Positions 1,400 to 53,989 of a DNA stretch of 64,000 nt are shown here, one piece after another. The position numbers were made by a program, and so were the translations under genes. Location: the NCBI RefSeq assembly GCF_963921235.1, contig NC_086108.1, positions 62,498,001-62,562,000 of the forward strand. Direction: 5' to 3'. This stretch comes from Mobula hypostoma (taxonomy: Eukaryota). The first letter of the stretch is position 1; each line of letters starts with the position of its first letter. The notes under the pieces are model-generated. The model saw nothing but the letters and a program-made list of their open reading frames with translations. It did no database searches and was not told the origin of the DNA.

Positions 1400-2300
1400 A
1401 TCAACCTGGACCTTTCCATCAACAAAGAAGATAAAGCTTTAGATACTCTATGGAAGTTGTCACTGAGATTTATGGCATTCTGTACAAAGACCTTTTGACC
1501 ACGCCCTTGCAACGGACTTCTCTTACCCTCAGGGTCTAAGTCACATTGACTCTCAACTTTCTTAGCATCAGGTTGCTAAAGTGACCACTATCGATGTCTG
1601 CTTCAGCACAGACATCATGGAGATATTGTATTGAAAAGGAATGACTTCAATTAGAATGTCATCCACTGGGATTTGCTGGTGGTGCTTGTTTCCTATGAGA
1701 ACTGGCAGCTACTAGCAGTCCCTGCGTGCCCAGAAGAGCTCCAATTAGTAATCCAATATTTTCATCAATGGTAGCAAGATCAGAAAATCCTGGAAAAAAA
1801 ATCAAAAGGTCAGTCAATGTCTGTAGAAAGAGCAACAGAGTTCATGTTTCAGGTCAGTGAAATATTGTTGGAACAGTGCTGGTTCTAGCATAGTGTCAGT
1901 ACCACTGTTTCTCTCGCCTCAAATTTTACCTGACCAAATGAGAATTCATGGCATTTTCCACTTCTGTTTCATATTTCCAGCATCTGATGTAGCATGTTGA
2001 TTTTCTTTTCTTCACTTGCATAATGGGCAGATAGTTATGGGATATGAGAAGGTTTTTCTTGGAACTGCAGATCCTTCTTCCTGAGATTCCATTGTCTGCA
2101 TCAGACCAGGACATTCTTCATACAGCCTGAGCAGATGTGGAGAGTTATCACCATGTGTTGCATGCTGCACAATCTAGCAAACTGAAGGCAGCAGCTCATG
2201 CAGAAGAGAAGCATGGAGCCCCAAAATGCAAGGGACATGAGGCAGAGTCTGAAGGGTTGCAGAAAGAGAAGGAAAAGGGGAAGATGAAGGTACTTGGGAG
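1400..2300 (+). pseudogene. Degraded PIF/Harbinger (HARBI1-like) transposase remnant, split by an old repeat at ~1780-1990
   Basis: Manual translation gives RYSMEVVTEIYGILYKDLLTTPLQRTSLTLRV*VTLTLNFL(fs)ASG from 1441 and LRFHCLHQTRTFFIQPEQMWRVITMCCMLHNLA from 2081. These match Harbinger transposase N-terminal and C-terminal (RFxCL...CCxLHN) motifs. Confidence 0.65.
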
Positions 2301-11714: not shown

Positions 11715-11851
11715 AATATCTTTCCTGACAAGGGGAGCCACTCTGTTTGACAGGTGAGACTTGTGGCTGTGGAACAATCTCAGGTGATGGGGCCTCCTCT
11801 ATGGTGGTTGACTCTGAGACCGCTGGAGGTGGTTCTGATAGGCCTGGACAC

Positions 11852-12413
11852 CTTTCTTGTCCTTTTTCTTCTTTCTAGAATGCACTTCTTGATCTTGGGA
11901 AAGTGTGTCGAGTTCACTGGAGTATTCTCTTAATAATTCTTCTATTGCTCCTTTTAAGATCTGATCTCTCCTCTTGGTTTCCTCATCTACAAAGCCATCT
12001 GACGAATCCTCTGTTTTTGTATCTCCATTGATTCCTTTATTTCTGGCCTTCCATTTGTCCAGCTTGGTTTTGGTCTTTGCATCTACTTTTACAAGCAGCT
12101 TTTTGTCTCGCGCTTGAAGTTCATACAATAACCTTAATACACACAGAGTAGATTCTGGTTCTTTATATTCACAAAAGCAGAATGCTTGCAACTTTTCTGA
12201 AGCTCCTTGAACTCTCTCCCAGCTTAAAACCTAGCCACATTTTACAAATAACTGCCTGATTAACATATCAGAAGCTTTCTCAGATATGTTGCCTACAAAA
12301 TCTGTTGTGGTCAGATCAGTACTTTCATCACTTTCAGTCTTCCTTTGAGCAGCATAGGCTTTCCTTGCTCTAATATTCTTTCCAGCTGAAGACAGAGAAG
12401 TTGGCCCAAATAC
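11852..12413 (-). pseudogene. RBM25: Intronless RBM25 (RNA-binding motif protein 25) fragment covering the RRM and following acidic/basic region, one in-frame stop
   Basis: One frame reads VFGPTSLSSAGKNIRARK...TTTDFVGNISEKASDMLIRQLFVKCG*VLSWERVQGASEKLQAFCFCEYKEPESTLCVLRLLYELQARDKKLLVKVDAKTK...DEETKRRDQILKGAIEELLREYSSEL...SRKKKKDKK. This is colinear with vertebrate RBM25 as I recall it (TTTVFVGNISEKASDMLIRQLLAKCGLVLSWKRVQGASGKLQAFGFCEYKEPES). TAG at 12231-12233; no introns. Confidence 0.93.
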
Positions 12414-12459: not shown

Positions 12460-12876
12460 ACAGTTGTGGCATCATCCAGTACCTTTCTTAATTCACTTTC
12501 AGTTGACTCTATTACAGGGGATGTGGCATACAAATGGTGGATGGATTGCCAATTAATGTGTAGTCATCTCAGACAATCATGCCACTCAACAACGCCGGCC
12601 CTCCTGTTTTTACCACATACAAGCCAAATGTGGCTTGTTGATTGTTACGTTTCACGTTTACAAATGTTATTCCCACAGGAGGTATCTTTTCTCCAGTACA
12701 AGTTCTTAGTTGGATATCTGCAGGCTTCCATTCAGTATCTTTGAAATGCCGTACAAATTCATTTTGTGGAATGACTGAAACAGCGGAGCTAGAGTCTAAA
12801 TCCATTTTAATTAATTTGCCGTTCACTTCTGATGTAAGCCATATTGCTTGCCTACTGTTAGTTTACACATTGTAAG
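12460..12876 (-). pseudogene. Gypsy aspartic protease and linker remnant
   Basis: NGKLIKMDLDSSSAVSVIP (decayed LDTG motif) and ATSPVIESTESELRKVLDDA, homologous to 20775-21168. Confidence 0.85.
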
Positions 12877-13550
12877 TCTTAATATTAGCAAAGCTCATTT
12901 CAGCTAGCTTGGTTGGAGCAGTTAAACTTTGAAGCAAACTGCATGCCTTTACATCCAATCCACTCAGCAAAATTGGCACTCACTTCCCATTGGCTATTCC
13001 ATTTAATTTTAAATACTGTCATTTTGTATACTGTACTGTATACAGTAATGGAACATGTCTATCTTTCCAATGAGGTCAGCTAATTCTACTTTTTTTTAAT
13101 GATTATTATCACCCTGCTCTCACTGTTTATGAAATCGTGTATTCTTCTATTTCCTGCCTTTTTTAAACTCGATCATGTCTCCCCTTCTGAAGCACATGTG
13201 TTGTGCTGCTTTTCCTTACTCAACCATTTCCTTGCACTTCTTTTAAAAACTTGTACCTCTTGCTGTGCTTCATCAGGTAGGTGGTATTCCTGGGTTCATT
13301 TTAAAAATACCTCACTTGCATTATTATGTTTTGTGACTCCAAAACATTAAACTAATTGAATGGAAATCAAAGGAGTCCAAAATGTGAGTCTAACTTCATT
13401 TTTTTTTACTTTAAATGAGGTGCGAAAATTTACAGGGTAGTGTCATTTTGTACGCAATTCACTTACTTTTGCATATAACCCAAAATGAATTATTTAAATA
13501 AACAAGAATGCTTAATCAAACAATGTATTTGCAGTATTACTCAAATATTA

Positions 13551-16845: not shown

Positions 16846-18083
16846 AAACATGCAGATATATATTTCAGTGCTTCATGTATGACAGCTTGAGCCATTTTGT
16901 TTTCCTTGTCTTGGTGCTTTTCCTGCCATGACGTTTGATGTCATACCAAAATATACAGGCTTTCCTATCATTTTTGTGCTCTCTTATCTTAAAGATCTTT
17001 CCTTCGATGCATTAAAATAATCAGTACACCTTTCTCAATGTCATTCCCATGTTGTTGAATCTATCAGAATCTTTGATATCCCAATTGTTGTGTATTTAAC
17101 ATTTCAGTAATTTTTGAGTAACATTGTAAATATATTGACCGATTAGGATTTCTTTGTTTGCTTAAATAATTCATTATGGATTATATGTGAAAGTATGTGA
17201 ATGGCTTATGTCATCACGTCACCATATCATAAGCATGTGCCTCACTAAAGTTAAAAACAAAACTAAATGTACATTAATTATCATCACCTCCATATTTTCT
17301 TTCAATTAGCTTTATACTTTGGAGTTACAAAATTAATAGTGGGAACAAGTAATTCTTAAAAAGAAGCATGACTCTCTTCCTGTTGAAGTGAGCCCTTGTT
17401 TTTTGTTGCAAGGGGAGAAAGACAGTTGCGCTAAAAAAGGGCAGAAAATGGACAAAATTCATGAGTTCATAAAGAATGAAAACCAGGTAAAGATAATAAT
17501 ACATGCTTGAAAAAGCAGAAATGGCTGGCTCATTGAAAAGATAGATGTGTGTAATTGTACGAAAGATAACTGGGGGATGTATACTGAGCAAATTCAGTAG
17601 TATTTTAAAACAAATGGAATGGCCAATGAAATGAGAAATGAGTGTCAGTGTTGCTGAGTATAATAGGTGGAAAAGCATTCAGTTTGCTTAGAGGTTTGAC
17701 TGTTCCAACCAAACCACCTGAAATGAGCTTTGCTGATATCATGCAAGTCATGCAGGAACATTTAGAAGTGAAAAATTTGTTGATTGTGGAATACTTTAGG
17801 TTCCATAAGTGGAATCCATTTCAGCATATATGGCTGATTGAAAAGATGTCTGAGCATTACCAGTTCAGTGATAGGCTTAATGATGCACTGAGAGATCATT
17901 TAGTTTCTTGACACTTACAAAAAAGCTTTCAGAAACAGCTCCAAACTGAAGCACAAGTCACATTTAAAAGAACAGTTGAAATTGCTGACAACAGGAATTC
18001 TGCAGATGCTGGAAATTCAAACAACACACATCAAAGTTGCTGGTGAACGCAACAGGCCAGGCAGCATATCTAGGAAGAGGTGC

Positions 18084-18119
18084 AGTTGACGTTTCAGGCC
18101 GAGACCCTTCGTCAGGACT
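18084..18119 (-). ncRNA. Minimal hammerhead ribozyme-like motif (stem I mismatch)
   Basis: Minus strand: AGTC CTGACGA AGGGTCTCGGCCT GAAA CGTC AACT. Confidence 0.55.
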
Positions 18120-18132
18120 AACTGAAGGAAGA

Positions 18133-19923
18133 AGCATAGAAGCATAGAAAATAGGTGCAGGAGTAGGCCATTCGGCCCTTCGAGCCTGCACCGCCATTTA
18201 TTATGATCATGGCTGATCATCCAACTCAGAAACCCGCCCCAGCCTTCCCTCCATACCCCCTGACCCCCATAGCCACAAGGGCCATATCTAACTCCCTCTT
18301 AAACATAGCCAATGAACTGGCCTCAACAGTTTGCTGTGGCAGAGAATTCCACAGATTCACCACTCTCTGTGTGAAGAAGTTTTTCCTAATCTCGGTCCTA
18401 AAAGGCTTCCCCTCTATCCTCAAACTGTGACCCCTCGTTCTGGACTTCCCCAACATCGGGAACAATCTTCCTGCATCTAGCCTGTCCAATCCCTTTAGGA
18501 TCTTATACGTTTCAATCAGATCCCCCCTCAATCTTCTAAATTCCAACGAGTACAAGCCCAGTTCATCCAGTCTTTCTTCATATGAAAGTCCTGCCATCCC
18601 AGGAATCAATCTGGTGAACCTTCTTTGTACTCCCTCTATGGCAAAGATGTCTTTCCTCAGATTAGGGGACCAAAACTGCACACAATACTCCAGGTGTGGT
18701 CTCACCAAGGCCTTGTACAACTGCAGTAGTACCTCCCTGCTCCTGTACTCGAATCCTCTCGCTATAAATGCCAGCATACCATTCGCCTTTTTCACCGCCT
18801 GCTGTACCTGCATGCCCACTTTCAATGACTGGTGTATAATGACACCCAGGTCTCGTTGCACCTCCCCTTTTCCTAATCGGCCACCATTCAGATAATAATC
18901 TGTTTTCCTATTTTTGCCACCAAAGTGGATAACTTCACATTTATCCACATTAAATTGCATCTGCCATGAGTTTGCCCACTCACCCAACCTATCCAAGTCA
19001 CCCTGCATCCTCTTATCATCCTCCTCACTGCTAACACTGCCACCCAGCTTCGTGTCATCCGCAAACTTGGAGATGCTGCATTTAATTCCCTCATCCAAGT
19101 CATTAATATATATTGTAAACAACTGGGGTCCCAACACTGAGCCTTGCGGTACCCCACTAGTCACCGCCTGCCATTCTGAAAAGGTCCCGTTTATTCCCAC
19201 TCTTTGCTTCCTGTCTGCTAACCAATTCTCCACCCACACCAATACCTTACCCCCAATACCGTGTGCTTTAAGTTTGCACACTAATCTCCTGTGTGGGACC
19301 TTGTCAAAAGGCTTTTGAAAATCCAAATATACCACATCCACTGGTTCTCCCCTATCCACTCTACTAGTTACATCCTCAAAAAATTCTATGAGATTCGTCA
19401 GACATGATTTTCCTTTCACAAATCCATGCTGACTTTGTCCGATCATTTCACTGCTTTCCAAATGTGCTGTTATCACATCCTTGATAACTGACTCCAGCAG
19501 TTTCCCCACCACCGACGTTAGGCTAACCGGTCTATAATTCTCTGGTTTCTCTCTCCCTCCTTTTTTAAAAAGTGGGGTTACATTAGCCACCCTCCAATCC
19601 TCAGGAACTAGTCCAGAATCTAACGAGTTTTGAAAAATTATCACTAATGCATCCACTATTTCTTGGGCTACTTCCTTAAGCACTCTAGGATGCAGACCAT
19701 CTGGCCCTGGGGATTTATCTGCCTTCAATCCCTTCAATTTACCTAACACCACTTCCCTACTAACATGTATTTCACTCACTTCCTCCATCTCACTGGACCC
19801 TCTGTCCCTTACTATTTCTGGAAGATTATTTATGTCCTCCTTAGTGAAGACAGAACCAAAGTAATTATTCAATTGGTCTGCCATGTCCTTGTTCCCCATA
19901 ATCAATTCACCTGTTTCTGTCTG
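18133..19923 (-). mobile_element. Young 5'-truncated CR1 LINE with uninterrupted RT frame
   Basis: [10 protein letters not shown]...[11 protein letters not shown]...SKFADDTK...RPHLEYCVQFWSP to stop at 18226. (TTCTATGC)2 tail. Near-identical to 50280-52057. Confidence 0.97.
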
Positions 19924-20283
19924 AAGAGTGAGTAAGGGATTTGAAAGTTGGAGGGAGAGGGGGAGATCCAAAATGATAGGAGAAGACAGGAGGGGGAGGG
20001 ATGGAGGCAAGAGCTGGACAGGTGATAGGCAAAAGGGATACAAGAGGATCATGAGACAGGAGGTCCGGGAAGAAAGACAAGGAGCGGGGGAGACCCACCC
20101 CTTGCCCATCCTCTGGGTCCCCTCCCCCTGTCTTTCTTCCCGGACCTCCTGTCCCATGATCCTCTCGTATCCCTTTTGCCAATCACCTGTCCAGCTCTTG
20201 GCTCCATCCCTCCCCCTCCTATCATTTCGGATCTCCCCCTCCCCCTTCAACTTTCAAATCCCTTACTAGCTCTTCCTTCAGTT

Positions 20284-20319
20284 AGTCCTGACGAAGGGTC
20301 TCGGCCTGAAACGTCGACT
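20284..20319 (+). ncRNA. Minimal type I hammerhead ribozyme motif
   Basis: AGTC-CTGACGA-AGG(gtctcgg)CCT-GAAA-CG-TC|GACT. Stem I AGTC/GACT, CUGANGA and GAAA cores, palindromic ACGU stem III, predicted GUC cleavage after 20315. Confidence 0.7.
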
Positions 20320-21169
20320 GCACCTCTTCCTAGAGATGCTGCCTGGCCTGCTGCGTTCACCAGTAACTTTGATGTGAGTTGAAATTGCTGTATCAATGGA
20401 AAAAGCAGTTGGAGATGCAATTGAGTTGTAGGCAGGAATGAAAGTGAGGATGAACAAAATTACAGAACAGAAACTGGCCTGGCTGAAAAAACTCTGTTAC
20501 CATTGTGGCAGGAGTTCATACACACCAGAATGCAGGTTTAAAGACAAAACATGCAGAGACTGCAACAAAGGAGGACACATACAAAGAGCATGTCAGGCAG
20601 ACAAATATAAATGCATGGCACAAGGAAGAAATAAAGTTAAAAAATCAAGTTGCAGTTTCAAAAAGGGCACTAATCTGCATGCTGTTGATGAAAAATGGTG
20701 AAATAGGACTGGGTAGCATTGAGGTTTACAATGTGAAAAGTAATAATAGATAAGCAATATGGTATGCATCACAAGTGAACAGCAAGTTAATTAAAATGGA
20801 ATTGGACACTGGCTTGACTGTTTTGATCATTTCACAAAATGAGCGTAAGCACCATTTCAAGGATATTGAACCAAAAGCCTGCAGATCTCCAACCAAGAAA
20901 TTATACTGGAGAAAAGATAACTCCTGTGGAAACAACATCTATACCAGTGACATAGAACAACCAACAAGCCACATTGGGTTTGTATGTGATAAAAACAGCA
21001 GGGCCAGCATTGTGGGGCCGTAATTGGTTGACACAATTACAACTTGATTGGAAAATCATCCACTATTTGCATGCCACATCCCCTGAAATAGAGTCAACTG
21101 AAAGTGAATTGAGAAAGGTACTAGATGATGTCACTGCAGTGTTCAAGGATGGCATTGGAAAACTCTAAC

Positions 21170-23850
21170 ACAATGATTTCCAATGGGGGCGGTTACATAT
21201 CCTGAGCGGGCGGTAGGGAAATAGAAGTTGTTGGGGGGCATTCAAGATTCTTGAGGGGGTGGCAGTAAGCTCCTGACTGACAGAGACATGACTGACCATG
21301 TCAACTCACTGCCATCCTCAACATTGATAGGCATTCCCAGTCTGTGTTAACTTTTTATTTTAATTTAGCCCTGTTACTGATAGGTAAAGATGTAAGGCAC
21401 AGTCCCTGTAAGTCTGAAGGTGGTGAAACCTCAAATTCTAATCCTGCTAAGAAACAAAAACTATGGAAAGTGTGTCAATACAATGTCACATACCTGGAGT
21501 ATAGTTTTATTCCATTCCCGTCAGATCAGCGATGCCCCATGTATCTTATCTGTAATACTGTACTGTCTACTGAAGTCATGAAACCATCAATATTGCAGGA
21601 ACCCTTCTGTAAAAGACACCCTGAAAAGGCTACTTATGATATTGCTCAGTTCCAGGAGATGAAAGAAGCATTTGAAAAACATTGCACACGCGAGTCTTTT
21701 GCCTAGAAAGCTAAAAGTGACTTTGATAGTTGTCTCATAGCTTCTATAACATTCCCAAAATGATAGCAAAGTGTGGAAAATGTCATACAACTGGTAAAAG
21801 ATTAAGTATGCCTGCTGTATCAAGTGGTCACCACTGTTCTTAAAATGGACACCAGTATTTAAAGATCAATTCCACTGAGTAATAACTCTACAGTTCGTAA
21901 TATTGATGAAATCAGTGAAAACATGGAATATCAACAATGCACAGAGCTACAAAAAACAGAATTTGGGATACAACTGGATGAGTCAACTGTGCAAGATGAG
22001 GCATTGCTAATGACATATTTACGGTTAATCAAAAATTGAAAAGTTTATAAAGAGATTCTCTTTTGCAAAAAGTTAAAAACAAATATCAATAGAGAATCAA
22101 TCTATGATGAGCTCAAAATGTACATTCAGTATAAAAGTATTCCAATTAAGAACATGAGTTCCTGTGCAATAGGTGGATGCCCATATACAGTGCCTATAAA
22201 AAGCATTCACTGCCCCCCCCGAGGTTTTCATTTTTATTGTTTTACAACATTGAATCACAGTGGATTTAATTTGGCTTTTTTGTGACTGATCAACAGAAAA
22301 ATACTCTTTTGTGTAAAAGTGAAAGCAGATCTCTACAAAGTGATCTAAATTAATTACAAATATGAAACACAAAATAATTGATTGTATAAGTATTCACCCC
22401 CTTTAATATCATCACTGGTGCAGCCAATTGGCTTTACAAGTCACATAAATAGTTAAATGGAATTCACCTGTGTGCAGTCAAGATGTTTCAATTGATTGTA
22501 GTAAAAATACACCTGTATCTGGAAGGTCCAACAGCTAGTGAGTCAATATCTTGGCAAAAACTATACAATGAAGGTAAAAGAACACTTGAAACAACTCTGT
22601 GACAAGGTTATTGGAAAGCACAAGTCAGGAGATGGATACAAGAAAATTCTGAAGTCACTGAATATCCCTTGGAGTACAGACAAGTCAATCATCAAGAAAT
22701 GGAGGAAATATGACACAGCTGTAGGTCTGTCCACAAAAATTGAGTGACCATGTAAATAGGGGACTAATGTGGGAGGTCACCAAGAGACCTATGACAACCG
22801 TGGAGGAGTTACAAGCTCCAGTGGCTGAGATGGGAGAGACTGTGTGTACAACAACTGTTGTCCAGGTGCTTCACCAGTTGCAGTTTTATGGGATAGTGGT
22901 AAAGAGAAAGCCACTGTTGAAAAACTCGCATGAAATCTCAGCTAGAGTTTGCCAGAAGGCATGTGGGAGACTCTAAAATCAACTGGAAGTAAGTTCTATG
23001 GTCTGATAAACCCAAAATTGAGCTTTTTGGCCATCAGACTAAATGCTATATTTGGCATAAGCCAAACACTGCACATCATCAAAATCACACCTTCCCTACC
23101 GTAAAGCATGGTGGTGGCTGCATCATGCTGTGGGTGTCAGGATATTTCACTGCAGCAGGCCCTGGAAGGCTTGTGAAGGTGGAGGGTAAAATGAATGTAG
23201 CAAAACACAGAGAAATCTTGGAGGAAAACATGATGCAGTCTGCAAGAGAACTGTGACTTGGGAAAAGATTTGTTTTCCAGCAAGACAATGACCCAGAGCA
23301 TAAAGCTAAGGCTACACAGACAGGGTTTGAAAACAACAACAAAGTTAGTGTCTTGGAGTGGCCAAGTCAAGAGTCCAGACCTCAACCCAAATGAGAATTT
23401 GTTGCTGGTCTTGAAAAGTGATGCTCATTCATGATCCCCATACAATTTGACAGAGCTTGAGCAGTTTTGTAAAGAAGAATGAGGGGAAAAATTGTAGTTT
23501 CCAGATATGCAAAGCTGATATAGACCTATCCACACAGACTCGGGCTGTAATTGCTGCCAAAGGTGCATCTACTAAATACTGACTTGAAGGGGGTGAGTAA
23601 TTATGCAATTAATTATTGTGTTTTATATTTGCAATTATTGTGTTTTATATTTGCAGAGATCTGTTTTCACTTTGACACGAGAGCGTCTTTTCTGTTTGTT
23701 CTGTGTCAAACAAGCCAAATTAAATCCAATCTGTTTCAATGTTGTAAAACAATGAAACATAAAAACTTCCAAAGGGTGGGGGGTGAATACCTTTTAAAGG
23801 CACTGTATGACTGGTCATCATGCTGGTTTAGTGACATTTATGTTTAGTGC
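21170..23850 (+). mobile_element. Decayed hAT (Buster/Charlie-like) transposon, interrupted by Tc1 and truncated by CR1
   Basis: TIR-like caatgatttccaa. BED-finger-like QYNVTYLEYSF...LICNTVLSTEVMKPS...KRHP, then PLSNN and FGIQLDEST. SCAIGGCP|MTGHHAGLV continues across the Tc1 insertion. Confidence 0.85.
22188..23805 (+). mobile_element. Full-length (1618 bp) Tc1-like IR/DR transposon with inactivated DD34E transposase
   Basis: TA TSD at 22186-87 and 23806-07, CAGTGCCT...AGGCACTG ends, ~215-bp inverted repeats. Disrupted ORF 22568-23583 with HKSGDGYKKI, WSD, KHGGGCIM, FQQDNDPEH and SPDLNPNENL. Confidence 0.95.
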
Positions 23851-24455: not shown

Positions 24456-24514
24456 CCCAGGAGCCTCCGAAACTGTGCCTTTCCTCATTCTCCTGCCTAT
24501 ATTTGCCAGTACTT

Positions 24515-25045
24515 CAAAGTTGCTGGTGAACGCAGCAGGCCAGGCAGCATCTCTAGGAAGAGGTACAGTCGACGTTTTGGGCCAAGACCCTTCATCAGGA
24601 CTAACCGAAGGAAGAGCTGGTAAGAGATTTGAAAGGGGGAGGGGGAGATCCAAAATGATAGGAGAAGACAGGAGGGGGAGGGATGGAGGCAAGAGCTGGA
24701 CAGTTGATTGGCAAAAGGGATATGAGAGGATCATATCCCCCCTCCCCCTTTTCTTTCTCCCTGGTCCTCCTGTCCCATGATCCTCTCATACTCCTTTTGC
24801 CAATCAACTGTCCAGCTCTTGGCTCTATCCTTCCCCCTCCTGTCTTCTCCTATCATTTTGGATCTCCCCCTCCCCCTCTCACTTTCAAATCACTTACTAG
24901 CTCTTCTTTCAGTTAGTCCTGATGAAGGGTCTCGGCCCGAAACGTCGACTGTACCTCTTCCTAGAGATGCTGCCTGGCCTGCTGTGTTCACCAGCAACTT
25001 TGATGTGTGTTGCTTGAATTTCCAGCATCTGCAGAATTCCTCGTG
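24515..25045. mobile_element. Inverted-repeat (Penelope-like pLTR) insertion with 13-bp TSD
   Basis: TSD tttgccagtactt at 24502-24514 and 25046-25058. Arms 24515-24734 and ~24777-25001 are reverse complements; the right arm has ~44 extra terminal nt. Confidence 0.8.
24915..24950 (+). ncRNA. Minimal type I hammerhead ribozyme motif
   Basis: AGTC-CTGATGA-AGGGTCTCGGCCC-GAAA-CG-TC|GACT. Predicted cleavage after 24946. Confidence 0.7.
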
Positions 25046-25249
25046 TTTGCCAGTACTTGCTCAGTGTTAGCAGTCATTTTGCTTAGAAATGCTGCTCGTC
25101 CCTCAAACTGCTGCTGTGGTCACCAATTCCTCAAAGAACAATTTTGGGTTCTTTACATGCAGGGTCTTTCTCTTTTTCTCCACAAAAGGTCTGCCTTTTA
25201 CTCACTTGGAACCAATTTGTAATGTATATGTGTATGCTTATTCTAATCG

Positions 25250-26761: not shown

Positions 26762-26940
26762 TTTTTCTCTCCCCACCTTTTAAATCTGCTCGTCTTTTTT
26801 TCCTCATGCCCTGCTGAAGGGTCTTGGCCTGAAACGTCAACGGTACTCTCTTCCATAGATGCTGCCTGGCCTGCTGAGTTCCTCCAGCATTTTGTGTCTT
26901 ACTTGGACTTCCAGCATCTGCAGATTTTCTCTTGTTTGTG
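26762..26940 (+). mobile_element. Single Penelope-like terminal arm with degenerate hammerhead motif
   Basis: cctgctgaagggtcttggcctgaaacgtcaac...gatgctgcctggcctgctgagttcctccagca...ccagcatctgcagattt. Confidence 0.7.
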
Positions 26941-29900
26941 ATCTGACGATTCTGTTTCTGATTCTATAATGAATAACTCAGCAACAAAGAGAACGGCTAA
27001 TACATGTTCACCTTATTTATTCGATCTCTTCACTTACCCTGAGCATGTGCAAATACACCATGGACACTTTGACAAATGTTACGGAAGGTCAACAGCTAAA
27101 GAAGGTCCATGTCTTCACCTCAATTTCTTTTCAGTTTTTTTCATTGCTACTTCGGGCTCACAAGGCTGGAGTAAAGTAAAATACTTTCCCAACTGGAGTT
27201 AATTTCAAGTAACGCAATGAGGAAAAACTACTGTTAGTAAAATGTTTACAAACTGTGTGAGTGTTCAGAAAGAGGCAACAAAGCTCTTTACTTCACATTT
27301 GCTTTTCTAATGATTTGCTGCTGTTAGCACTTTACTGTTGTGAATAAGCAAGCCCATTTTTGCTGAATCAGGTATTAACCTCATAAAGAAAACCACCTCC
27401 ATGACCACTATCTTTATTTCTTTTCCAGTACTTGCAATTTTATTCTTTCCAGCTGTACCTCCTGTACAAAACACATTTGTTTCTAATTACCTATGCTTAT
27501 TTCTTGCTGGTACATTTTTATTCTCATCTAGGCAAGGAATTTTTATAAGGAAGGCAGAACACTCTCCTGCTTGTGACTCCGAATATCAGCATCAGATGAT
27601 CAGTCTTCAAGTTTTTGTGCAAGTTAGACATAAAGTAATGTTTCCTCTGTGCTGCATTGACAATTGCTCAGTCACACAGAGGAGCTCTGCTAGTGGCCCC
27701 AGTATGTCATCTCCTGTCCTCTGCATCAGACATTCCAAAGGCATCAATGGTCCAGGTTACAAATTTAGTGTCAGTATCAGCAGAGCTGTTGACAATTTAA
27801 TGCTATCAATGTACCTCAGTTTACAAACTGGATAGACACAAGTTGCTGAAGGCAATGAAATTAGTATCAGTCTAATAATAAGTTTATAAGCATGTTCATA
27901 GACATAAACTCAGTGGAAAGAAGCTCCCACTGAGCATGTACTGACAACTAACCATTTATTTGCACTAATTCTAGATTAATCCCATTTTACCCTTTCAGTT
28001 CTGATGTTTTGTTTCAGTTCAGTTCTTCCATTGTTGCCAGTTTATTACAACAGAATATTCACCTTCACGGCTTGGCGCAATGCAGTGTAGTACTTCTCGT
28101 ACAAACATGTTATTTACATTATCAAATTTGACTGCCATTTTGTTAGCAGTTTTCTTTACCCTCCCAGTGGTAGATAGTTTCTGCAATGTGACAAAAAATG
28201 TATTGTGAATTTGCTTATTGGTCTGCTAAAAAGGCCATGGAATGAAATGTCAGCCCTTGTTTGGGTAACCTGCAACATCTATCAAGAAATTGATGATAAC
28301 AGATTAATTCTGATGAAAACAATTGGTTTGAAACATAAACTGTTTCCATCTCTACAAATGCTGCCTGACCTGCTGAGTATTTCCAGAACTTTCTATTCTG
28401 AGCAGCAGCTGTAGATTTTTGATTTTCAAACAAAAAAAATAGGTTGTGTGTTTTACACTGAATCATATGCAAAAGCTTTGTTGGCCTTGTTCCCAACAGC
28501 TGCTTCCTGCAGAGATCACAGCTGTCACATCATTGCCACATGGTCTGCTGGGAAATTAATCAGACCTCAAAGAACACTCTCCTTGGCAGCCACAGCACAG
28601 CAGCATAAATTGCTGTCATGGTAATTTGGTAAAAAGAGAAGAGGATGGCCTTGGGGTTGGGTGGGACTGGGAGCACAGCACTCTGCTGCATATGTGAGCA
28701 CCCTCCATGCAGTGGTCTAGTCTGATCTGCCCTTGTGACCCCACGATACTGCAATTCACAGGTTCTTCAGGAGGTTAGTGTTTGCAGCAGTATGCATTGA
28801 GTGTGTGTGACATAAAAATGCCAAGATCTTTACCTGAGAAACTTACGGACTCAAATGAGCACAAATTAATAGCTTGACAGAGACTCTAGAAAAGCATTGA
28901 TGTTTATGTTGACTACAAAACAACAGTAGACACCCACACTTTAACAGCCATTTTTTGGTCAGTAACTGGTGGAATGGCCAACACCACACCAGATAATGTA
29001 ATTAAATGTGTACCTGACATCATGAAAATATCAGATAGGCCAAGGTGATCCATGCTGAGGCAGCAACCAATCCACAAATAAGTGCTTGCACTAGATATCA
29101 CCTGCAAGGAGTATATAGATGCAAGTTAGAAGCTGGTTTTGTTCCTAATGGAATAACAAGGCCAAACGATGACACCAATAAAAATTTTATTAAAACTTAA
29201 TCTAAAATAATGGGATCAATTGTGATCTTTTATTTATAGAGGTGGTAGAATGTGGTTTAACTTGTTTTCACATCAAAAGGAAACAATTACTACTTGAATG
29301 AAAATAGATTTAATGTAGATGTGGCTTTAATGCACTACTGCATGTGTTAAATATGTGGAGGTACTGAACATATAAAGCAATATATATGTCTAAAGCATCA
29401 TCGTTGGTTCTCTCCGGCATTTCTTTGCACAAAATAATTCATTTCTGTCTTTCATTTAGTTTACTGTAAACAGACTTGTAGGGAATGCCAAATTTTAAAA
29501 CTGTAATCTGCTTAAATCAATTTTGCTTTGTGCTGTGCTATTAAACTTCCACTAAAGATAAATTTAAAACACAAAGCTCCCAGGCTATTTTGGCCTGAAG
29601 GGTGTATGGAGTGTTTTTGTGCATTTTATTAACATTGTGGAAAATATTGCAACAAATAATTGTTTTATGCTGTGGCATAGTTTTTCTTTCTCTCTCTCCA
29701 AATATATTTTGCTACAAAGGCTTGCCTCTGAAGTTACAACAGATGTTTTCAGAAATGATTTTTTTTCCCCTCTCTCTGGGCACTTTTTGCTGAGGTTTTT
29801 CATTGAGGACAAATCACATTTGAAACAGATCATATTCCATGAAAATGTGCTTTGCTTTAGTTACATTTGAACCAGAAGATGACATATTTTAAAATATCAT

Positions 29901-34514: not shown

Positions 34515-34930
34515 CAAACAAAGAGAAAATCTGCAGACGCTGGAAATCTGAGCAACATACACAAAATGCTGGAGGAACTCAGCAGGCCAGGCAGCATCTA
34601 TAGAAAATAATACAGTTAGCATTTCGGGTCGAAACTCATTTGGCAGGAAATCATGAAAATCTCTTACTTTCTCTCACCAGATTGCTTGTCCACCAATTGC
34701 CTCCCTCTGGTGCTCCTTCCCCCCTCTCTCTTTCTTCCATGGACTTCTGTTTCTTTCACTAATCAACTCCCCAGCTCGTCACTTCACCCCTCCGCACCCC
34801 CCAACTTTTAAATCTACTCCTCAGCTTTTTTTCTCCAGTCCTGCCGAAAGGTTTCGGCTCATAACGTCAACTGTACTCTTTTCCATAGATGCTGCGTGGC
34901 CTGTTGAGTTCCTCCAGCATTTTGTGTGTC
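34515..34930. mobile_element. Older Penelope-like inverted-repeat insertion
   Basis: aaatgctggaggaactcagcaggccaggcagcatctat at ~34565 and its reverse complement at ~34885-34925. Degenerate hammerhead at ~34836-34872. Confidence 0.75.
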
Positions 34931-44990: not shown

Positions 44991-46764
44991 TTGAAATGTC
45001 TTTTTTTTTCTACATCATGCATAACTACAGAAATACAAATTGTTTGTTCTTTGTTCAGTGGCTGCCAGTTCGTCTTCTATCTCCAAAATGTTTACATTAC
45101 TTCCTTTATATTCCCAACTCCAGAGGCAAAACCTCACCTGCCACTAAGATCAGAAATAGCTATCATCAGCAGGTCAGAGAGAAACTGTAGAAGAAATATT
45201 GGGTTAATTTTACATTACCATCCTTCAATTAATTTTTATCCCTGAGCATCATCTGTTTTATGTTCTTGGGGAAGGGATGTCTGAAATTCTTTGGGGAATT
45301 GACTGGTGTTCAGACTCTATCACCTTGGTACCTGTTCACCTACATTCACCCTTCTGGATATGGAGGGCAAGAGGAGGAACAGCTACAAGAGGTGACCAGG
45401 CTTCAGAAAACACGAAATGAAGATCTGTCCTCTTAGAAAGACAAATAGAAATCATTGAGAAGGATAAACATACTGTATGTTTACACGTTTGTAGGTAACC
45501 CATGTTTAGATTACTAGCAAATAATTTTAAAAAAAGCTCAAATGTTTATATGTAAACATTGAAATATAGAAACGGAGAAAACCTACAGCACAATGCAGGC
45601 CCTTCTGCCCACAATGCTGTGCCAAACATGTACTTAGAAATTACCTATGGCTACCCATAGCCCTCTATTTTTCTAAGCTCCATGTACCTATCCTGGAGTC
45701 TATTAAAAAAACCCTATTGTATCCGCCTCCACCACCATCGCCAGCAGCCCATTCCACATACTCACCACTCTCTGCATAAAAAAACTTACCCCTGACATCT
45801 CCTCTGTACCTACTTCCAAGCACCTGAAAAGTATGCCCTATCGTGCTACCCATTTCAGCCCTGGGAGAAAGCCTCTGACTATCCACACAATCAATGCCTG
45901 TCATTATCTTATACACCTCTATCAGATCACCTCTCATCCTCTATCGCTCTAAGGAGAAAAGGCGGAGTTCACTCAACCTATTTTCATAAGGCTTACTCTC
46001 CATTCCAGGCAACATCCTTGTAAATCTCCTGTGCATGCTTTCTATGGTTTCCACATCCTTCCTGTAGTGAGGAGACCAGAACTGAGCACAGTACTCCAAG
46101 GGGGTCTGACCAGGGTCTTATATAGCTGTAACGTTGTCTCTTGGCTCCTAAGTTCAATTCCACGATTGATGAAGGCCAGTGCACCATATGCCTTCTTAAC
46201 CATAGAGTCAATCTGCGCAGCAGCTTTGAGTATCTTATGGACTCAGACCCCAAGATCCCTCTGATCCTCCACATTGCCAAAAGTCTTACGATTAACCAAC
46301 TCACACTTATCTAGGTTGATCTCCATCTGCCACTTCTCAGCTCAGTTTTACATCCTATCGATGTCCCGCTGTAACCTCTGACAGCCCTCCACACTATCCA
46401 CAACACCTCCAACCTTTGTGTCATCAGCAATTTTACTAACACATCCCTCCACTTCATCATCTAGGTCATTTATAAAAATCACGAAGAGAAGGGGTCCCAG
46501 AACAGATCCCTGAGGCACACCACTGGTCACCAACCTCCATGCAGAAGATGACCCGTCTGCAACCACTCCTTTGCCTTCTGTGGTCAAGCCAGTTCTGGAT
46601 CCACAAAGCAATGTCCCCTTGGATCCCATGCCTCCTTACTTTCTCAATAAGCCTTGCATGGGGTACCTTATCAAATGCCTTGCTGAATTCTATTTATACT
46701 ACATTTACTGGTCTACCTTCATCAATGTGTTTAGTCACACACTCAAAAAATTCAATCAGGCTCG

Positions 46765-47875
46765 GTAGGCTTATTCAGAAAATTAGAAGGCATGGGATCC
46801 AGGGAAGTTTGGCCAGGTGGATTCAGAATTGGCTTGCCTGCAGAAGGCAGAGGGTGGTGGTGGAGGGAGTACATTCAGATTGGAGGATTGTGACTAGTGG
46901 TGTCCCACAAGGATCTGTTCTGTGACCTCTACTTTTCGTGATTTTTATTAACGACCTGGATGTAGGGGTAGAAGGGTGGTTTGGCAAGTTTGCAGACGAC
47001 ACAAAGGTTGGTGGTGTTGTAGATAGTGTAGAGGATTGTCAAAGATTGCAGAGAGACATTGATAGGATGCAGAAGTGGGCTGAGAAGTGGCAGATGGAGT
47101 TCAACCCAGAGAAGTGTGAGGTGGTACACTTTGGAAGGACAAACTCCAAGGCAGAGTACAAAGTAAATGGCAGGATACTTGGTAGTGTGGAGGAGCAGAG
47201 GGATCTCGGGGTACATGTCCACAGATCCCTGAAAGTTGCCTCACAGGTGGATAGGGTAGTTAAGAAAGCTTATGGGGTGTTAGCTTTCATAAGGATAGAG
47301 TTTAAGAGTCGCGATGTAGTGATGCAGCTCTACAAAACTCTGGTTAGGCCACACTTGGAGTACTGTGTCCAGTTCTGGTCGCCTCCCTATAGGAAGGATG
47401 TGGAAGCATTGGAAAGGGTACAGAGGAGATTTACCAGGATGCTGCCTGTTTTAGAGAGTATGCATTATGATCAGAGATTAAGGGAGCTAGGGCTTTACTC
47501 TTTGGAGAGAAGGAGGATGAGAGGAGACATGATAGAGGTGTACAAGATAATAATTGGAATAGGTAAGAGTGGATAGCCAGCACCTCTTCCCCAGGACACC
47601 ACTGCTCAATACTAGAGGACATGGCTTTAAGGTAAGGGGTGGGAAGTTCAAGGGGGATATTAGAGGAAGGTTTTTTACTCAGAGAGTGGTTGGTGCGTGG
47701 AATGCATTGCCTGAGTCAGTGGTGGAGGCAGATACACTAGTGAAGTTTAAGAGACTACTAGACAGGTATATGGAGGAATCTAAGGTGGGGGCTTATATGA
47801 GAGGCAGGGTTTGAGGGTTGGCACAACATTGTGGGCCGAAGGGCCTGTACTGTGCTGTACTATTCTATGTTCTAT
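46765..47875 (+). mobile_element. 5'-truncated CR1
   Basis: ORFs 46938..47576 and 47569..47814 (KFADDTK, RPHLEYCVQFWSP, FFTQRVV). (TTCTATG)2 tail. Confidence 0.95.
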
Positions 47876-48644
47876 GTAAGGCACAACCTGCCTTCCACCA
47901 TGCTGACTATTCCAAATCATATTATGCCTCTCCAAATGTTCATAAATCCTGTCTCTCAGGGTCTTTTCCATCAACTTACCAACCACTGAAGTCAGCCTCA
48001 CTAGTCTATAATTTCCTAGGCTACCTCTACTCCCTTCCTTGAATAGGGGAACAACATCTGCAACACTCCAATCCTCCAGAACCACTCCTGTCCCCAGTGA
48101 TGATGCAAAGATCATTGCCAGAGGCTCAGCAATCTCCTCCCTCGCCTCCCACAGTAGCTTGGGGTACATCTCATCCAGTCCCGGAGACTTATCGAACTTG
48201 ATGCTTTCCAAAAGTTCCAGCACATCCTCTTTCTTAATGTCTATATGCTCAAGCTTTTCAATCCACTATAAATCATCCTTACAATCGCCAAGATCCTTTT
48301 CCACAGAGAATACTGAAGCAAAGTAGTCATTAAATATCTCTGCTATCTCCTCCGGTTCCATACACTCTTTTCCACTGTCACACTTGATTGGTTCTATTTT
48401 CTCACGTCTTATCCTCTTGCTCTTCACATACTTGTAAAAGCCTTGGGGTTTTCTTTAATCCTATTCACCAAGGCCTTCTCATGGCCCCTTCTGGCTCTCC
48501 TAATTTCATTCTTAAGCTCCTTCCTGCTAGCCTTATAATCTTCTAGATCTCTATCATTACCTAGTTTTTTGAACCTTTCATAAGCTTTTCTTTTCTTCTT
48601 GATTAGATTTTCAACAGCCTTTGTACACCATGGTTCCTATACCT

Positions 48645-48939
48645 GAAAGGAGAATATAGGGAGCTAGGAAGGGAGTTGAGAAAAAGGACCGCAAAGGTAG
48701 TAATCTCGGGATTACTGCCTGTGCCACGCGACAGTGAGAGTAGGAATGCGATGAGGTGGAGGATAAATGCGTGGCTGAGGGATTGGAGCAGGGGGCAGGG
48801 ATTCAAGTTTTTGGATCATTGGGACCTTTTTTGGTGCAGGCATGACCTGTACAAAAAGGACGGGTTACACTTGAATCCTAGGGGGACCAATATCCTGGCA
48901 GGGAGATTAGCGGGGGCTACTGAGGTGACTTTAAACTAG
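48645..48939 (+). pseudogene. CR1 ORF1 C-terminus (SGNH esterase-like domain)
   Basis: KVVISGLLPV...INAWLRDW...FLDHWDLF...DGLHLNPRG (DxxH block). Confidence 0.9.
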
Positions 48940-51900
48940 AATGGTTGGGGGGTGGGAATCAAATTAAAGAGGCTAGGCGTGAGGAGGTTAGTTCACAACA
49001 GAGGGATGGGAACCAGTGCAGAGAGACAGAGGGGTGTAAAGTGAGCGTAGAAGCAAAAAGTACAAAGGAGAAAAGTAAAAGTGGCAGGCCGACAAATCCA
49101 GGGCAAGCATTAAAAAGGGCCACTTTTCAACATAATTGTACAAGGGCTAAGAGAGTTGTAAAAGAGCGCCTGAAGGCTTTATGTGTCAATGCAAGGAGCA
49201 TTCGTAATAAGGTGGATGAATTGAAAGTGCAGATTGTTATTAATGATTATGATATAGTTGGGATCACAGAGACATGGCTCCAGGGTGACCAGGGATGGGA
49301 GCTCAACATTCAGGGATATTCAATATTCAGGAGGGATAGACATGAAGGAAGGGGAGGTGGGGTGGCGTTGCTGGTTAAAAAAGAGATTAATGCAATAGAA
49401 AGGAAGGACATAAGCCGGGAAGATGTGGAATCGATATGGGTAGAGCTGCGTAACACTAAGGGGCAGAAGACGCTGGTGGGAGTTGTGTACAGGCCACCTA
49501 ACAGTAGTAGTGAGGTCAGAGATGGTATTAAACAGGAAATTAGAAATGTGTGCAATAAAGGAACAGCAGTTATAATGGGTGACTTCAATCTACATGTAGA
49601 CTGGGTGAACCAAATTGGTAAAGGTGCTGAGGAAGAGGATTTCTTGGAATGTATGCGGGATGGTTTTTTGAACCAACATGTCGAGGAACCAACTAGAGAG
49701 CAGGCTATTCTGGACTGGGTTTTGAGCAATGAGGAAGGGTTAATTAGCGATCTTGTCGTGAGAGGCCCCTTGGGTAAGAGTGACCATAATATGGTGGAAT
49801 TCTTCATTAACATGGAGAGTGACATAGTTAATTCAGAAACAAAGGTTCTGAACTTAAAGAGGGGTAACTTTGAAGGTATGAGACGTGAATTAGCTAAGAT
49901 AGACTGGCAAATGACACTTAAAGGATTGACGGTGGATATGCAATGGCAAGCATTTAAAGGTTGCATGGATGAACTACAACAATTGTTCATCCCAGTTTGG
50001 CAAAAGAATAAATCAAGGAAGGTAGTGCACCCGTGGCTGACGAGAGAAATTAGGGATAGTATCAATTCCAAAGAAGTAGCATACAAATTAGCCAGAGAAA
50101 GTGGCTCACCTGAGGACTGGGAGAAATTCAGAGTTCAGCAGAGGAGGACAAAGGGCTTAATTAGGAAGGGGAAAAAAGATTATGAGAGAAAACTGGCAGA
50201 GAACATAAAAACGGACTGTAAAAGCTTTTATAGATATGTAAAAAGGAAAAGACTGATAAAGACAAATGTAGGTCCCCTGCAGACAGAAACAGGTGAATTG
50301 ATTATGGGGAGCAAGGACATGGCAGACCAATTGAATAATTACTTTGGTTCTGTCTTCACTAAGGAGGACATAAATAATTTTCCAGAAATAGTAAGGGACA
50401 GAGGGTCCAGTGAGATGGAGGAAGTGAGTGAAATACACGTTAGTAGGGAAGTGGTGTTAGGTAAATTGAAGGGATTGAAGGCAGATAAATCCCCAGGGCC
50501 AGATGGTCTGCATCCTAGAGTGCTTAAGGAGGTAGCCCAAGAAATAGTGGATGCATTAGTGATAATTTTTCAAAACTCGTTAGATTCTGGACTAGTTCCT
50601 GAGGATTGGAGGGTGGCTAATGTAACCCCACTTTTTAAAAAAGGAGGGAGAGAGAAACCGGGGAATTATAGGCCGGTTAGCCTAACGTCGGTGGTAGGGA
50701 TACTGCTGGAGTCAGTTATCAAGGATGTGATAACAGCACATTTGGAAAGCGGTGAAATGATCGGACAAAGTCAGCATGAATTTGTGAAAGGAAAATCATG
50801 TCTGACGAATCTCATAGAATTTTTTGAGGATGTAACTAGTAGAGTGGATAGGGGAGAACTAGTGGATGTGGTATATTTGGATTTTCAAAAGCCTTTTGAC
50901 AAGGTCCCACACAGGAGATTAGTGTGCAAACTTAAAGCACACGGTATTGGGGGTAAGGTATTGGTGTGGGTGGAGAATTGGTTAGCAGACAGGAAGCAAA
51001 GAGTGGGAATAAACGGGACCTTTTCAGAATGGCAGGCGGTGACTAGTGGGGTACCGCAAGGCTCAGTGCTGGGACCCCAGTTGTTTACAATATATATTAA
51101 TGACTTGGATGAGGGAATTAAATGCAGCATCTCCAAGTTTGCGGATGACACGAAGCTGGGTGGCAGTGTTAGCAGTGAGTAGGATGCTAAGAGGATGCAG
51201 GGTGACTTGGATAGGTTGGGTGAGTGGGCAAACTCATGGCAGATGCAATTTAATGTGGATAAATGTGAAGTTATCCACTTTGGTGGCAAAAATAGGAAAA
51301 CAGGTTATTATCTGAATGGTGGCCGATTAGGAAAAGGGGAGGTGCAACGAGACCTGGGTGTCATTATACACCAGTCATTGAAAGTGGGCATGCAGGTACA
51401 GCAGGCGGTGAAAAAGGCGAATGGTATGCTGGCATTTATAGCGAGAGGATTCGAGTACAGGAGCAGGGAGGTACTACTGCAGTTGTACAAGGCCTTGGTG
51501 AGACCACACCTGGAGTATTGTGTGCAGTTTTGGTCCCCTAATCTGAGGAAAGACATCTTTGCCATAGAGGGAGTACAAAGAAGGTTCACCAGATTGATTC
51601 CTGGGATGGCAGGTCTTTCATATGAAGAAAGACTGGATGAACTGGGCTTGTACTCATTGGAATTTAGAAGATTGAGGGGGGATCTGATTGAAACGTATAA
51701 GATCCTAAAGGGATTGGACAGGCTAGATGTGGGAAGATTGTTCCCGATGTTGGGGAGGTCCAGAACGAGGGGTCACAGTTTGAGGATAGAGGGGAAGCCT
51801 TTTAGGACCGAGATTAGGAAAAACTTCTTCACACGGAGAGTGGTGAATCTGTGGAATTCTCTGCCACAGCAAACTGTTGAGGCCAGTTCATTGGCTATGC

Positions 51901-51971
51901 TTAAGAGGGAGTTAGATATGGCCCTTGGGGCTACAGGGGTCAGGGGGTATGGAGGGAAGGCTGGGCTCTGA
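48930..51971 (+). pseudogene. CR1 ORF2 (AP endonuclease + reverse transcriptase) with one premature stop
   Basis: NARSI, GITETW, YRPP, GDFN and SDH endonuclease motifs. RT motifs PQGSVLGP and FADD. TAG at 51180-51182 where the copy near 19020 has GAG; the same frame continues to 51971. Confidence 0.95.
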
Positions 51972-53989
51972 GTTGGATGATCAGCCATGATCATAATAAA
52001 TGGCGGTGCAGGCTCGAAGGGCCGAATGGCCTACTCCTGCACCTATTTTCTATGTTTCTATACCTTACCATCCTTTCCCTGTCTCATTGGAACATACCTA
52101 TGCCAAACACCATGCAAGTATCCGCTGGACATTTGCCAAATTTCTGCCTTATATTTCCCTGAGAACATCTGTTCCTAATTTATGTTTCCAAGTTGCTGCC
52201 TGATAGCTTCATATTTCCCCTTACTCTAATTAAATGCTTTCCTAACTTGTCTGTTCCTATCCCTCTCCAATGCTATGGGAAAGGAGATAGTGATCATGAC
52301 TCTATCTCCAAATTGCTCTCTCAATGAGAGACCTGACACCTGACCAAGTTCATTTCCCAATACTAGATCAAGTACAACCTCTCCTCTTGTAGACTTATCT
52401 ACATACTGTGTCAGGAAACCTTCCAGAACACACCTAACAAACTCCACCCCATCTAAACCCCCTGCTCTGGGGCAATGCCAATCAATATTTGGGAAATTTA
52501 AATCACCAACTACAATAACCCGGTTATTATTACTCCTTTCCAGAATCTGTCTCCCTATCTGGTCCTCTATGTCCTTGTTACTATTGGGTGGTCTATAAAA
52601 AACACCCTGTAGAGTTATTGACCCCTTCCTGTTTCTTATCCTTTTCCACTGGATTGCTGACACCATTCAAGAGAGAGGGATTTAACTAATACTTCATTAT
52701 CTCTCCAAGCTGTAAGGTTAAGGGTCAGGTGCAAAGTGCTTCCAAAACCTCACTTCAGGACCTTACTACCCCACCTCAGTTCAAGTGAGACAAGATCAAC
52801 TGTGACTCATTGTTGGTTCCATACAGGCTGGTAGCCATCACTCATCTCTAGTCAAACCATCATCTCTACTTCTCCCTCCAGCTATATTGTTGTGCACTTC
52901 TGACATTTTCTCTTTTTATTTTAGATTTCCAGCATGTGTACTGTGTTTTTGTGTAACTTTTGTGATTCTGGTAACTACAAAACAAAGTTCACCCATCAAA
53001 GCCCCTCTTACTGTTATATCAGAAACACGTTTTACCTAAATCTTGTGGATAAAACAGCAAATTTTCAGTATATTCTCTTCAAGCAATGGTTCTGAGAATC
53101 AGGAAAGTCTTGAATAATAGGGCTCATAATGGGGAATTTTCGTGGCTTCTTTTTGATTGCTGGATCATTTGTTAATTGAATTGGTTCACAGGTTTAAATA
53201 ATGATTCATTCATTAGGTGTTAAAAAGATCTTACAAAGATTCAGCCACCAACTATTTGCATGAATTGCAGTAAAGCAACATTAAAGCACACCTACAAACA
53301 ATTCGTGAGTCCTTTGAGTGTAATTACCCCTTGCAGAAACCATTGAACTTGCATGCCGCAGTCAATATTTCAACAAGAAAATACAGCCTGATTTTCAAAA
53401 ATAATAGAATGCCTTTTGGATTAAAAGACCATATTAAGTAAATAGAAATAACAGGATTTTATTACTAACTAAAATAAAGAAGTGCAATTGCTGAAAATTG
53501 GAATTAAAAGCCAAAAATGAGGGCAACATTCAGTTTCCACTGAGAGACAAGTGGAGTTAGCTTTCCAAAGACCATCTTCAGACTTTTTATCAGAAATGTC
53601 AACTTTGTTTTCCTTTCTCAAATTTTGCCCAATTTTCTGAGTGTTTCCAACATTTTCTGGTTTTATTTTCATTATTATTTTTTCACTTATGGATGACATT
53701 CTTATGTCATAAGCTCTTGCCCTATCCCACCATTTCAACACAGCATCCAGAGTTAGTGGCATAGTGATTTATACTGAAGAGGATTAACCTTTTGAGTCCA
53801 TAACTTCAGGTCCAGATCTTGAATAATGATATGATATCCAGTATCCGATGTTTTAATGCGTTAAGCCAGCACGAGGAAATCTCCTGGTAATTATTCCCCT
53901 CCCTTGGCTGATTAATCAGTATAGATCTATGTTGAATGTGGCCTGGAAGAAGCACTGAGGAGAACAAGACCACTGAGGATAACAAGATG

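Follow-up and report, generated by a model that had tools for sequence, protein, structure and literature searches.

Penelope-like elements and their hammerheads

Minimal hammerhead ribozymes (min-HHRs) reside in the pLTRs of metazoan Penelope-like elements (PLEs), including the fish elements Xena, Poseidon, and Neptune, and have been described as thousands of dispersed single motifs per genome, as well as opposite-strand pairs 100-700 bp apart (Cervera and De la Pena 2014, PMC4209133). The min-HHR monomer in that study did not cleave, and dimers cleaved weakly. PLE insertions are 5'-truncated, are often joined by an inverted 5'-truncated copy, and have one end extended by a 30-40-bp tail (Craig et al. 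2021, PMC8557442); rotifer examples show inverted pLTRs, target duplications of 8-10 bp, and junction palindromes (Arkhipova et al. 2013, PMC3846280). For PAc, a Poseidon element of the green anole, Frangieh et al. (2024, PMC11167929) reported that (i) both target strands are cut and extended in vitro, (ii) reverse transcription begins at two sites that bound the tail, and (iii) insertion is independent of the hammerhead, which cuts only with the protein; in the RNA-seq data described there, no ends were found at the ribozyme cut site.

Here, we analyzed one window, namely a whole stretch of 64,000 nucleotides (64 kb) of Mobula hypostoma DNA, for which an earlier note had placed hammerhead motifs in the arms of palindromic repeats, taken these repeats for Penelope-like termini, and suggested that they put self-cleavage sites into transcripts of either strand. 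The repeats are, in our assessment, very probably stumps left by the 3' ends of a Penelope-like retrotransposon that is very abundant and bears an endonuclease. Both the kind of motif and the layout of the insertions are already published.

Hammerhead motifs in the window

The motif at 20284-20319 (+), which reads AGTC-CTGACGA-A-GGGT-CTCG-GCCT-GAAA-CG-TC-GACT, and the motif at 24915-24950 (+), which differs from it by N7=T and by a G10.1-C11.1 pair, both contain all 11 core letters and a GUC cleavage triplet. Helix I and helix II are completely paired in each (4/4 and 4/4 pairs), an extra A follows A9, and the palindrome ACGU replaces stem III; the 20284 copy has a G.U wobble at 10.1-11.1. The cuts that the earlier note had predicted, after 20315 and 24946, fall at the C17 positions. 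The two mirror copies likewise lie where they had been read from the sequence, at 18084-18119 (-) and 24567-24602 (-), and the latter does carry AAAA in place of GAAA (G12>A), which breaks its core. The core of the former is intact, although its first stem I pair is a C.A mismatch, which the note had overlooked. Decayed versions reported near 26810, 34840, and 63755 were recovered at 26807 (A6>C), 34837 (A6>C, G12>A, and A13>T), and 63753 (G12>A and A13>G), that is, with one to three core changes each. The core is intact at 20284, 24915, and 18119 and broken in 4 of the 7 ungapped window copies, the ACGU palindrome (the 15.1-16.1 segment, with loop 3 absent) is present in 6 of these 7, and the full motif is kept in 2 of 13 well-scoring arms.

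A descriptor of the loop-less min-HHR matched three window sites (20288+, 24919+, and a weak 53581-), compared with a chance level of 0.005 per window on average and 1 at most in 200 order-2 Markov simulations, while an Rfam scan of the window returned 43 matches at E<=5, among which the hammerhead family was absent. These Rfam matches are below threshold, belong mostly to miRNA families, and have their source in the long hairpins of the palindromes; a miss would be expected for a motif that lacks an intramolecular stem III. The fold z-scores of four 46-nt motifs ranged from -0.26 to -1.75, and the stem covariation across copies that the note had looked to did not appear within the family, with no compensatory changes among the 7 ungapped window copies. 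The motifs are real, being type I minimal hammerheads with a palindromic, dimer-type stem III; in the tailed arms they lie ~100 nt short of the 3' end.

Position 24938 (motif position 11.1) carries T in 45% of the contig depth of a DNA run, far above CpG decay, and this T marks a large G10.1.U11.1 subfamily, like the copies at 20284 and 18119. Judged by eye, a possible very old palindrome of a related subfamily spans 53480-53680 and contains the descriptor match at 53581-; the arm profile described below did not detect it at E<10.

Anatomy of the insertions

From 12 of the arms we built an arm profile, which recovers 13 arms at E<1e-20, distributed over 8 insertions, and in addition some weaker remnants; on the reversed window its best match has E=1.8. 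The features are as follows.

1781-1987: probable sixth, very old pair, weak; short arm 1781-1855 (-) at E=7.6e-5 and tailed arm 1904-1987 (+) at E=0.057
17974-17987: left target-site duplication of insertion A, 14 bp, exact repeat at 20377-20390
17988-18132 (-): left arm of insertion A, 3' part, with full tail
18084-18119 (-): min-HHR in the left arm of insertion A; core intact, C.A mismatch
18133-19922 (-): 5'-truncated LINE inside the left arm of A, not PLE; RVT_1 at E=2.8e-32, RT only
19923-20094 (-): left arm of insertion A, 5' part, polypyrimidine region upstream of the HHR
20095-20376 (+): right arm of insertion A, tail absent
20284-20319 (+): min-HHR in the right arm of insertion A; intact, predicted cut after 20315
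20377-20390: right target-site duplication of insertion A
24502-24514: left target-site duplication of insertion B, 13 bp, exact repeat at 25046-25058
24515-24734 (-): left arm of insertion B, tail absent, short fold-back at the centre
24567-24602 (-): min-HHR in the left arm of insertion B; G12>A
24735-25045 (+): right arm of insertion B, tail at ~25008-25045
24915-24950 (+): min-HHR in the right arm of insertion B; intact, predicted cut after 24946
25046-25058: right target-site duplication of insertion B
26807-26938 (+): solo tailed arm of an older subfamily, A6>C
28304-28423 (+): solo old arm with strong decay, from the profile
34515-34930: palindrome C; tailed left arm 34515-34647 (-), tail-less right arm (+), HHR relic at 34837
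55534-55656 (-): solo old tailed arm, from the profile
58262-58474: palindrome D, 9-bp target duplication at 58262 and 58466, tail on the right arm
63639-63850: palindrome E; tailed left arm 63639-63752 (-), tail-less right arm (+), HHR relic at 63753

Each palindrome is one PLE insertion, in which two 5'-truncated copies stand head to head with their 3' ends outward. An extra tail of 30-40 nt is present on exactly one arm in all five pairs (A to E): the tailed arms end at profile position 134-135, whereas in the short arms the end falls at 93-105 for B, C, D, and E and at ~101 for A, the last judged by eye up to the target duplication. Insertions A, B, and D are bordered by target duplications of 14, 13, and 9 bp, respectively, and no clear duplication was found around palindrome C or palindrome E. 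Contig loose ends accumulate behind 25048-25049, just past the tail of insertion B. The tail on one arm, the inverted 5'-truncated partner, and the 9-14-bp duplications match the published structure of PLE insertions, which supports the reading of these repeats as Penelope-like termini.

The motifs at 18084 and 20284 lie in opposite arms of one insertion, A (17988-20376), and are partners despite their distance because a LINE later landed in the left arm. This LINE (18133-19922), which we take to be of the CR1 type from its features, is 96-98% complementary to 50277-52061, and GAAGA is found at both of its junctions. On either side of insertion A, the sequence matches neighboring portions of a single older repeat at 12466-13017. 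In the same region, a 675-codon open frame at 18229-20253 (-) runs from the centre region of palindrome A into the truncated LINE RT and is a chance fusion.

The centres and the arm lengths differ in all five pairs. Among the informative sites of the A and B arms, 5 are shared within an insertion, 1 is shared by side, and 0 are crossed, besides which there are 24 singleton sites; 3 of the 5 arm-shared sites are C/T changes, 2 of them at CpG, and could reflect parallel decay. The variable centres, together with the sharing within insertions, indicate that the mirror half of each palindrome was built at insertion and was not inherited as a unit. In palindrome D (58271-58465), both arms break in the 3' strand of stem II, with an overlap of 3 nt.

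The 5' breakpoints of many short arms (34647, 58350-58352, 63745-63753, 55656, and 28304) lie inside or at the edge of the hammerhead, whose self-complementarity may stall reverse transcription or supply the microhomology that joins two cDNAs. All 13 arms extend at least ~12 nt beyond the cut site in the 5' direction, and none begins at the cut; their template RNAs were therefore uncut there.

Link to a coding element and abundance

The window contains neither a PLE-type RT nor a GIY-YIG domain by Pfam in any of its 218 stop-to-stop ORFs of at least 70 aa, and a tblastn search of it with 68 PLE-like proteins gave no match. Nor does it hold any direct partial tandem of the pLTR-ORF-pLTR kind. 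Exact patterns at the family level found nothing in viral, prokaryote-genome, or metagenome contigs. A relaxed core pattern matched 71 metagenome loci and 0 viral ones; none of the 71 resembles the window arm beyond the core, and they exemplify the motif class rather than the window family. By tblastn, 14 of these 71 loci contain PLE-like coding sequence and 57 do not. In 13 of the 14, this sequence lies on the motif's strand and ends between 56 nt into the motif and 1493 nt before it; 5 of these 13 loci had supplied tblastn queries, 4 of which have independent Pfam matches to GIY-YIG. GIY-YIG was found in 4 of the 51 ORFs tested (from 59 of at least 150 aa), each on the same strand as, and directly upstream of, a motif. 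These relatives, from other animals, carry a Neptune-type cysteine (zinc) linker; the stump family itself is probably of the Neptune type.

Further, stem I covaries across 52 distinct contexts of the core, in which Watson-Crick pairing holds at 2.2-1.2 in 42 and at 2.3-1.3 in 32, compared with shuffle means of 16.7 and 13.0 and shuffle maxima of 30 and 25; the contexts are kin, so that the shuffle test overstates the effect, and pair 1 is partly fixed by the pattern. No covariation was seen at pairs 4 and 5. One contig of an RNA run, a single record from another sample that is joined across a gap, has a loose end encoding E-E-Q-H-L-I beside the motif, which resembles the endonuclease end motif K-E-Q-R-L-I-F. 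A search with the arm open frame for a protein fused to RT or GIY-YIG returned only two Mobula host-gene models, and queries with PLE endonucleases returned no named shark or ray protein among 48 and 20 matches, most of which are unnamed. A coding master element for this family is inferred from indirect evidence, since the window holds no PLE ORF.

Two min-HHR cores lie head to head within ~80 bases in L044 (660-738) and L060 (1942-2018), loci from other organisms that thereby repeat the layout of the stump palindromes, and in L024 (870-900) and L062 (202-232) the core pattern is downstream of 4Fe-4S protein genes; the latter two are probably prokaryotic hammerheads unrelated to PLEs.

The arm open frame matches only gene models of Mobula hypostoma and Mobula birostris (81-94% identity over ~35 residues), which places the arm family in devil rays. 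In one DNA run, 141,494 contigs align to a 305-base arm, a figure that is not a copy number. At least half of the window's words occur in nine of the runs listed, which bear two organism labels between them; runs with a small share (X19, X23, and X24) were set aside. Our literature search found no paper on this PLE family in rays; motifs from sharks or rays may be listed in the supplements of PMC4209133 and of the preprint bioRxiv 10.64898/2026.07.22.740005.

Repeats abound in the window, among them fragments of LINE RT and endonuclease and a transposase of the Tc1 type. A nearly complete young LINE at 48607-52061 (+) encodes a GDSL/SGNH esterase domain followed by endonuclease and RT, has one in-frame stop near 51180, and matches the LINE inside insertion A at 96-98%. 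Inverted LINE fragments form 45894-47560 (arms 45894-46566 and 46854-47560, 78% complementary), a Tc1/Sleeping Beauty-type transposon relic with 118-nt inverted ends lies at 22222-23767, and a short array with a 30-bp period lies at 61864-62089. The frame at 11802-12230 (-), which had no Pfam or PDB match, looks like a processed RBM25-like pseudogene.

Folding, decay, and RNA of the dispersed copies

The head-to-head layout means that a transcript of either strand meets an antisense arm before it meets the motif. Insertion B is predicted to fold as one near-perfect hairpin of ~230 bp (-442.8 kcal/mol, z -32), in which the pairing probabilities of both stem I and stem II are 0.000000 on both strands; in insertion A, the motif is predicted to pair with its mirror across the LINE. 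The earlier note was right to expect the long hairpin to compete with the ribozyme fold. For the isolated monomer, a rod-like fold that pairs the core with ACGUC has -11.7 kcal/mol, as opposed to -6.8 and -8.7 kcal/mol for the open form, and the active dimers that we modeled, at -11.1 and -16.3 kcal/mol, lie above two rods (-23.4), all of these energies covering secondary structure apart from tertiary contacts and proteins.

In the family's contigs in run X1, the CpG-change shares at G12, 15.2, 16.2, C17, and 1.1 are 12.7, 12.3, 13.7, 10.0, and 11.6%, respectively, and those outside the core are 9.0, 11.9, and 13.5%; these figures are weighted by contig depth, mix subfamilies, and are among the 40 of 78 rows listed, with G8 outside those. 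The core CpGs thus decay like the non-core ones, that is, neutrally, and the excess conservation of the core that the note had asked about is not seen at CpGs (10-14% core, 9-13.5% non-core). In a run that we guess to be RNA, these shares are about halved at core and non-core positions alike, and intact motifs are accordingly not depleted in it.

The repeat aligns to 11,501 contigs of this presumed RNA run. A 2939-nt contig of run X9, at a depth of 73, ends in an arm and could represent a PLE transcript or a host 3' end. Also in run X9, the tail region is 2-2.5x higher than the HHR region, relative to DNA. We considered this excess as a sign of cleavage and rejected it, because the increase starts at ~24965, the point at which sister subfamilies rejoin the query, and because RNA ends are not visible in contigs. 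On the basis of the modeled folds and the neutral decay, the dispersed copies probably do not cleave host transcripts, and the earlier suggestion of working cleavage sites in transcripts of either strand is not supported, given the antisense arm that comes first, the stem I and stem II probabilities of 0.000000, and the neutral decay of the core CpGs.

Alternative readings

The reading in which the dispersed copies are working ribozymes, cutting host transcripts of either strand as monomers or trans-dimers, could draw on the intact motif in 2 of 13 arms, on solo arms that have no antisense partner, on the repeat-containing contigs of the presumed RNA run, and on the arm's sense translation inside two predicted Mobula proteins. 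We nevertheless consider it very improbable, because both intact motifs sit behind an antisense arm and the fold leaves them wholly paired, the monomer prefers the rod and the active dimer lies above two rods in energy, and the core CpGs lack excess conservation. Moreover, the published min-HHR monomer remained uncleaved and its dimers were weak (PMC4209133), and the PAc ribozyme depends on protein, with RNA-seq ends absent at its cut site in the data reported (PMC11167929). A variant in which splicing removes the upstream antisense arm with an intron, and so frees the hammerhead for cleavage in the mRNA, is a long shot. If it held, the very large number of copies could allow trans-dimers, or protein help, to cut such mRNAs, and exonized PLE ends would act as a self-destruct signal in rays. 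The following features bear on it.

20262-20285 and 24893-24916: polypyrimidine tracts, each with sites resembling splice acceptors (CAG and TAG)

The acceptor-like CAG (20281) and TAG (20285) stand with this tract at the 5' strand of helix I, and in P0055 and P0006 (STARD3 N-terminal-like isoform), which are NCBI-predicted Mobula gene models known here as proteins, the sense translation of the arm starts at, or two residues before, the acceptor-like point. The intron of Drosophila virilis Penelope also ends at the 5' end of helix I (PMC4209133). Loose ends at 24917 relative to 24915 number 75/263 in the presumed RNA run and 536/1642 in DNA and are not commoner in RNA; this lack of enrichment, together with the neutral decay of the core, weakens the splicing idea.

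A different possibility is that the palindromes are a non-autonomous unit, either a MITE-like foldback or a non-LTR retrozyme that spreads via RNA circles. They are short, non-coding, and of high copy number, with long inverted arms; rare head-to-tail joints, from 25050 back to 24915, occur in 11 DNA contigs; and retrozymes have been reported from one chondrichthyan genome (bioRxiv 10.64898/2026.07.22.740005). The chance of this reading is slighter still, given that centres and arm lengths vary from pair to pair throughout the five, that the tail makes the arms unequal, and that the duplications range from 9 to 14 bp, so that equal inverted repeats, a shared interior, and a fixed duplication length, as in a MITE or foldback, are not found. 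As for retrozymes, that preprint defines non-LTR retrozymes as tandem, whereas the copies here are not tandem and have start-to-start spacings of 1.9-23 kb. Finally, the likeness to a hammerhead could be accidental, with CUGANGA and GAAA occurring by coincidence in a self-complementary repeat end. The missing Rfam hammerhead match, the modest z-scores of the motif folds, and the missing compensatory stem changes in the 7 ungapped window copies would fit such an accident, to which we assign a negligible probability: 11 core letters, GUC, and both stems are in place against a chance level of 0.005 per window, and the core recurs with a covarying stem I behind PLE endonuclease genes of other animals.

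Proposed route of insertion

Returning to the Penelope-like reading, we take the in vitro work on anole PAc as a model and propose that the element's protein would cut the two DNA strands at points separated by 9-14 bp. Each nick would prime reverse transcription, with two starts ~30-40 nt apart on the pLTR RNA, and two such starts would yield one tailed and one tail-less arm. Both cDNAs would stop early and be joined at microhomologies, giving a head-to-head palindrome between target duplications. The hammerhead would be carried along because it sits ~100 nt upstream of the RT start. A catalytic role, if any, would be confined to tandem master transcripts, with the assistance of a dimer or of protein, and in the dispersed stumps the hammerhead would be a mere passenger, decaying neutrally and kept from folding by the antisense arm. 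Self-priming on an antisense template has been proposed for inverted junctions (Arkhipova et al. 2013, PMC3846280); the fold-back at the centre of insertion B fits self-priming too, and our data do not separate the two mechanisms.

Because its copies are so numerous, the family lends itself to the study of PLE integration, in particular of the two RT starts, the stagger of the cuts, and the joining of the centres, and the same copies are useful for asking whether PLE hammerheads ever cut in vivo. As double-stranded RNA, the long hairpins, like inverted Alus, may have more impact on the host than the ribozymes do.

Comparison with known systems

The window motifs share with the min-HHRs of PMC4209133 (i) the type I architecture with no loop 3 and a palindromic 15.2-16.2, as well as (ii) the extra nucleotide after A9, the G10.1-C11.1 pair, and a helix I of 4-5 bp. 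Their helix II has 4 bp, whereas that of the Schistosoma families in the same report has 7-8 bp. The window holds ~13 arms per 64 kb, and cartilaginous fish are apparently not among the hosts named in that report.

Non-LTR retrozymes (bioRxiv 10.64898/2026.07.22.740005) are likewise non-coding, carry a type I HHR, and have a proposed origin in PLE pLTRs; they are, however, tandem with one HHR per unit, whereas the window copies are dispersed and inverted.

Among the PLEs of PMC3846280 and PMC8557442, the common features are the inverted head-to-head copy, the tail at one end, the duplication around the whole unit, and a central fold-back or microhomology. The window arms differ in being ORF-less stumps of ~80-330 bp and in having duplications of up to 13-14 bp, as compared with 8-10 bp in the rotifer examples (PMC3846280). 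With PAc, the window family would have in common an HHR ~100 nt upstream of two RT starts that bound the tail, the cutting and extension of both target strands, and uncut RNA as the main template (PMC11167929). PAc belongs to the Poseidon clade, and its ORF starts in stem II, whereas the relatives of the window motif carry the Neptune-type zinc linker.
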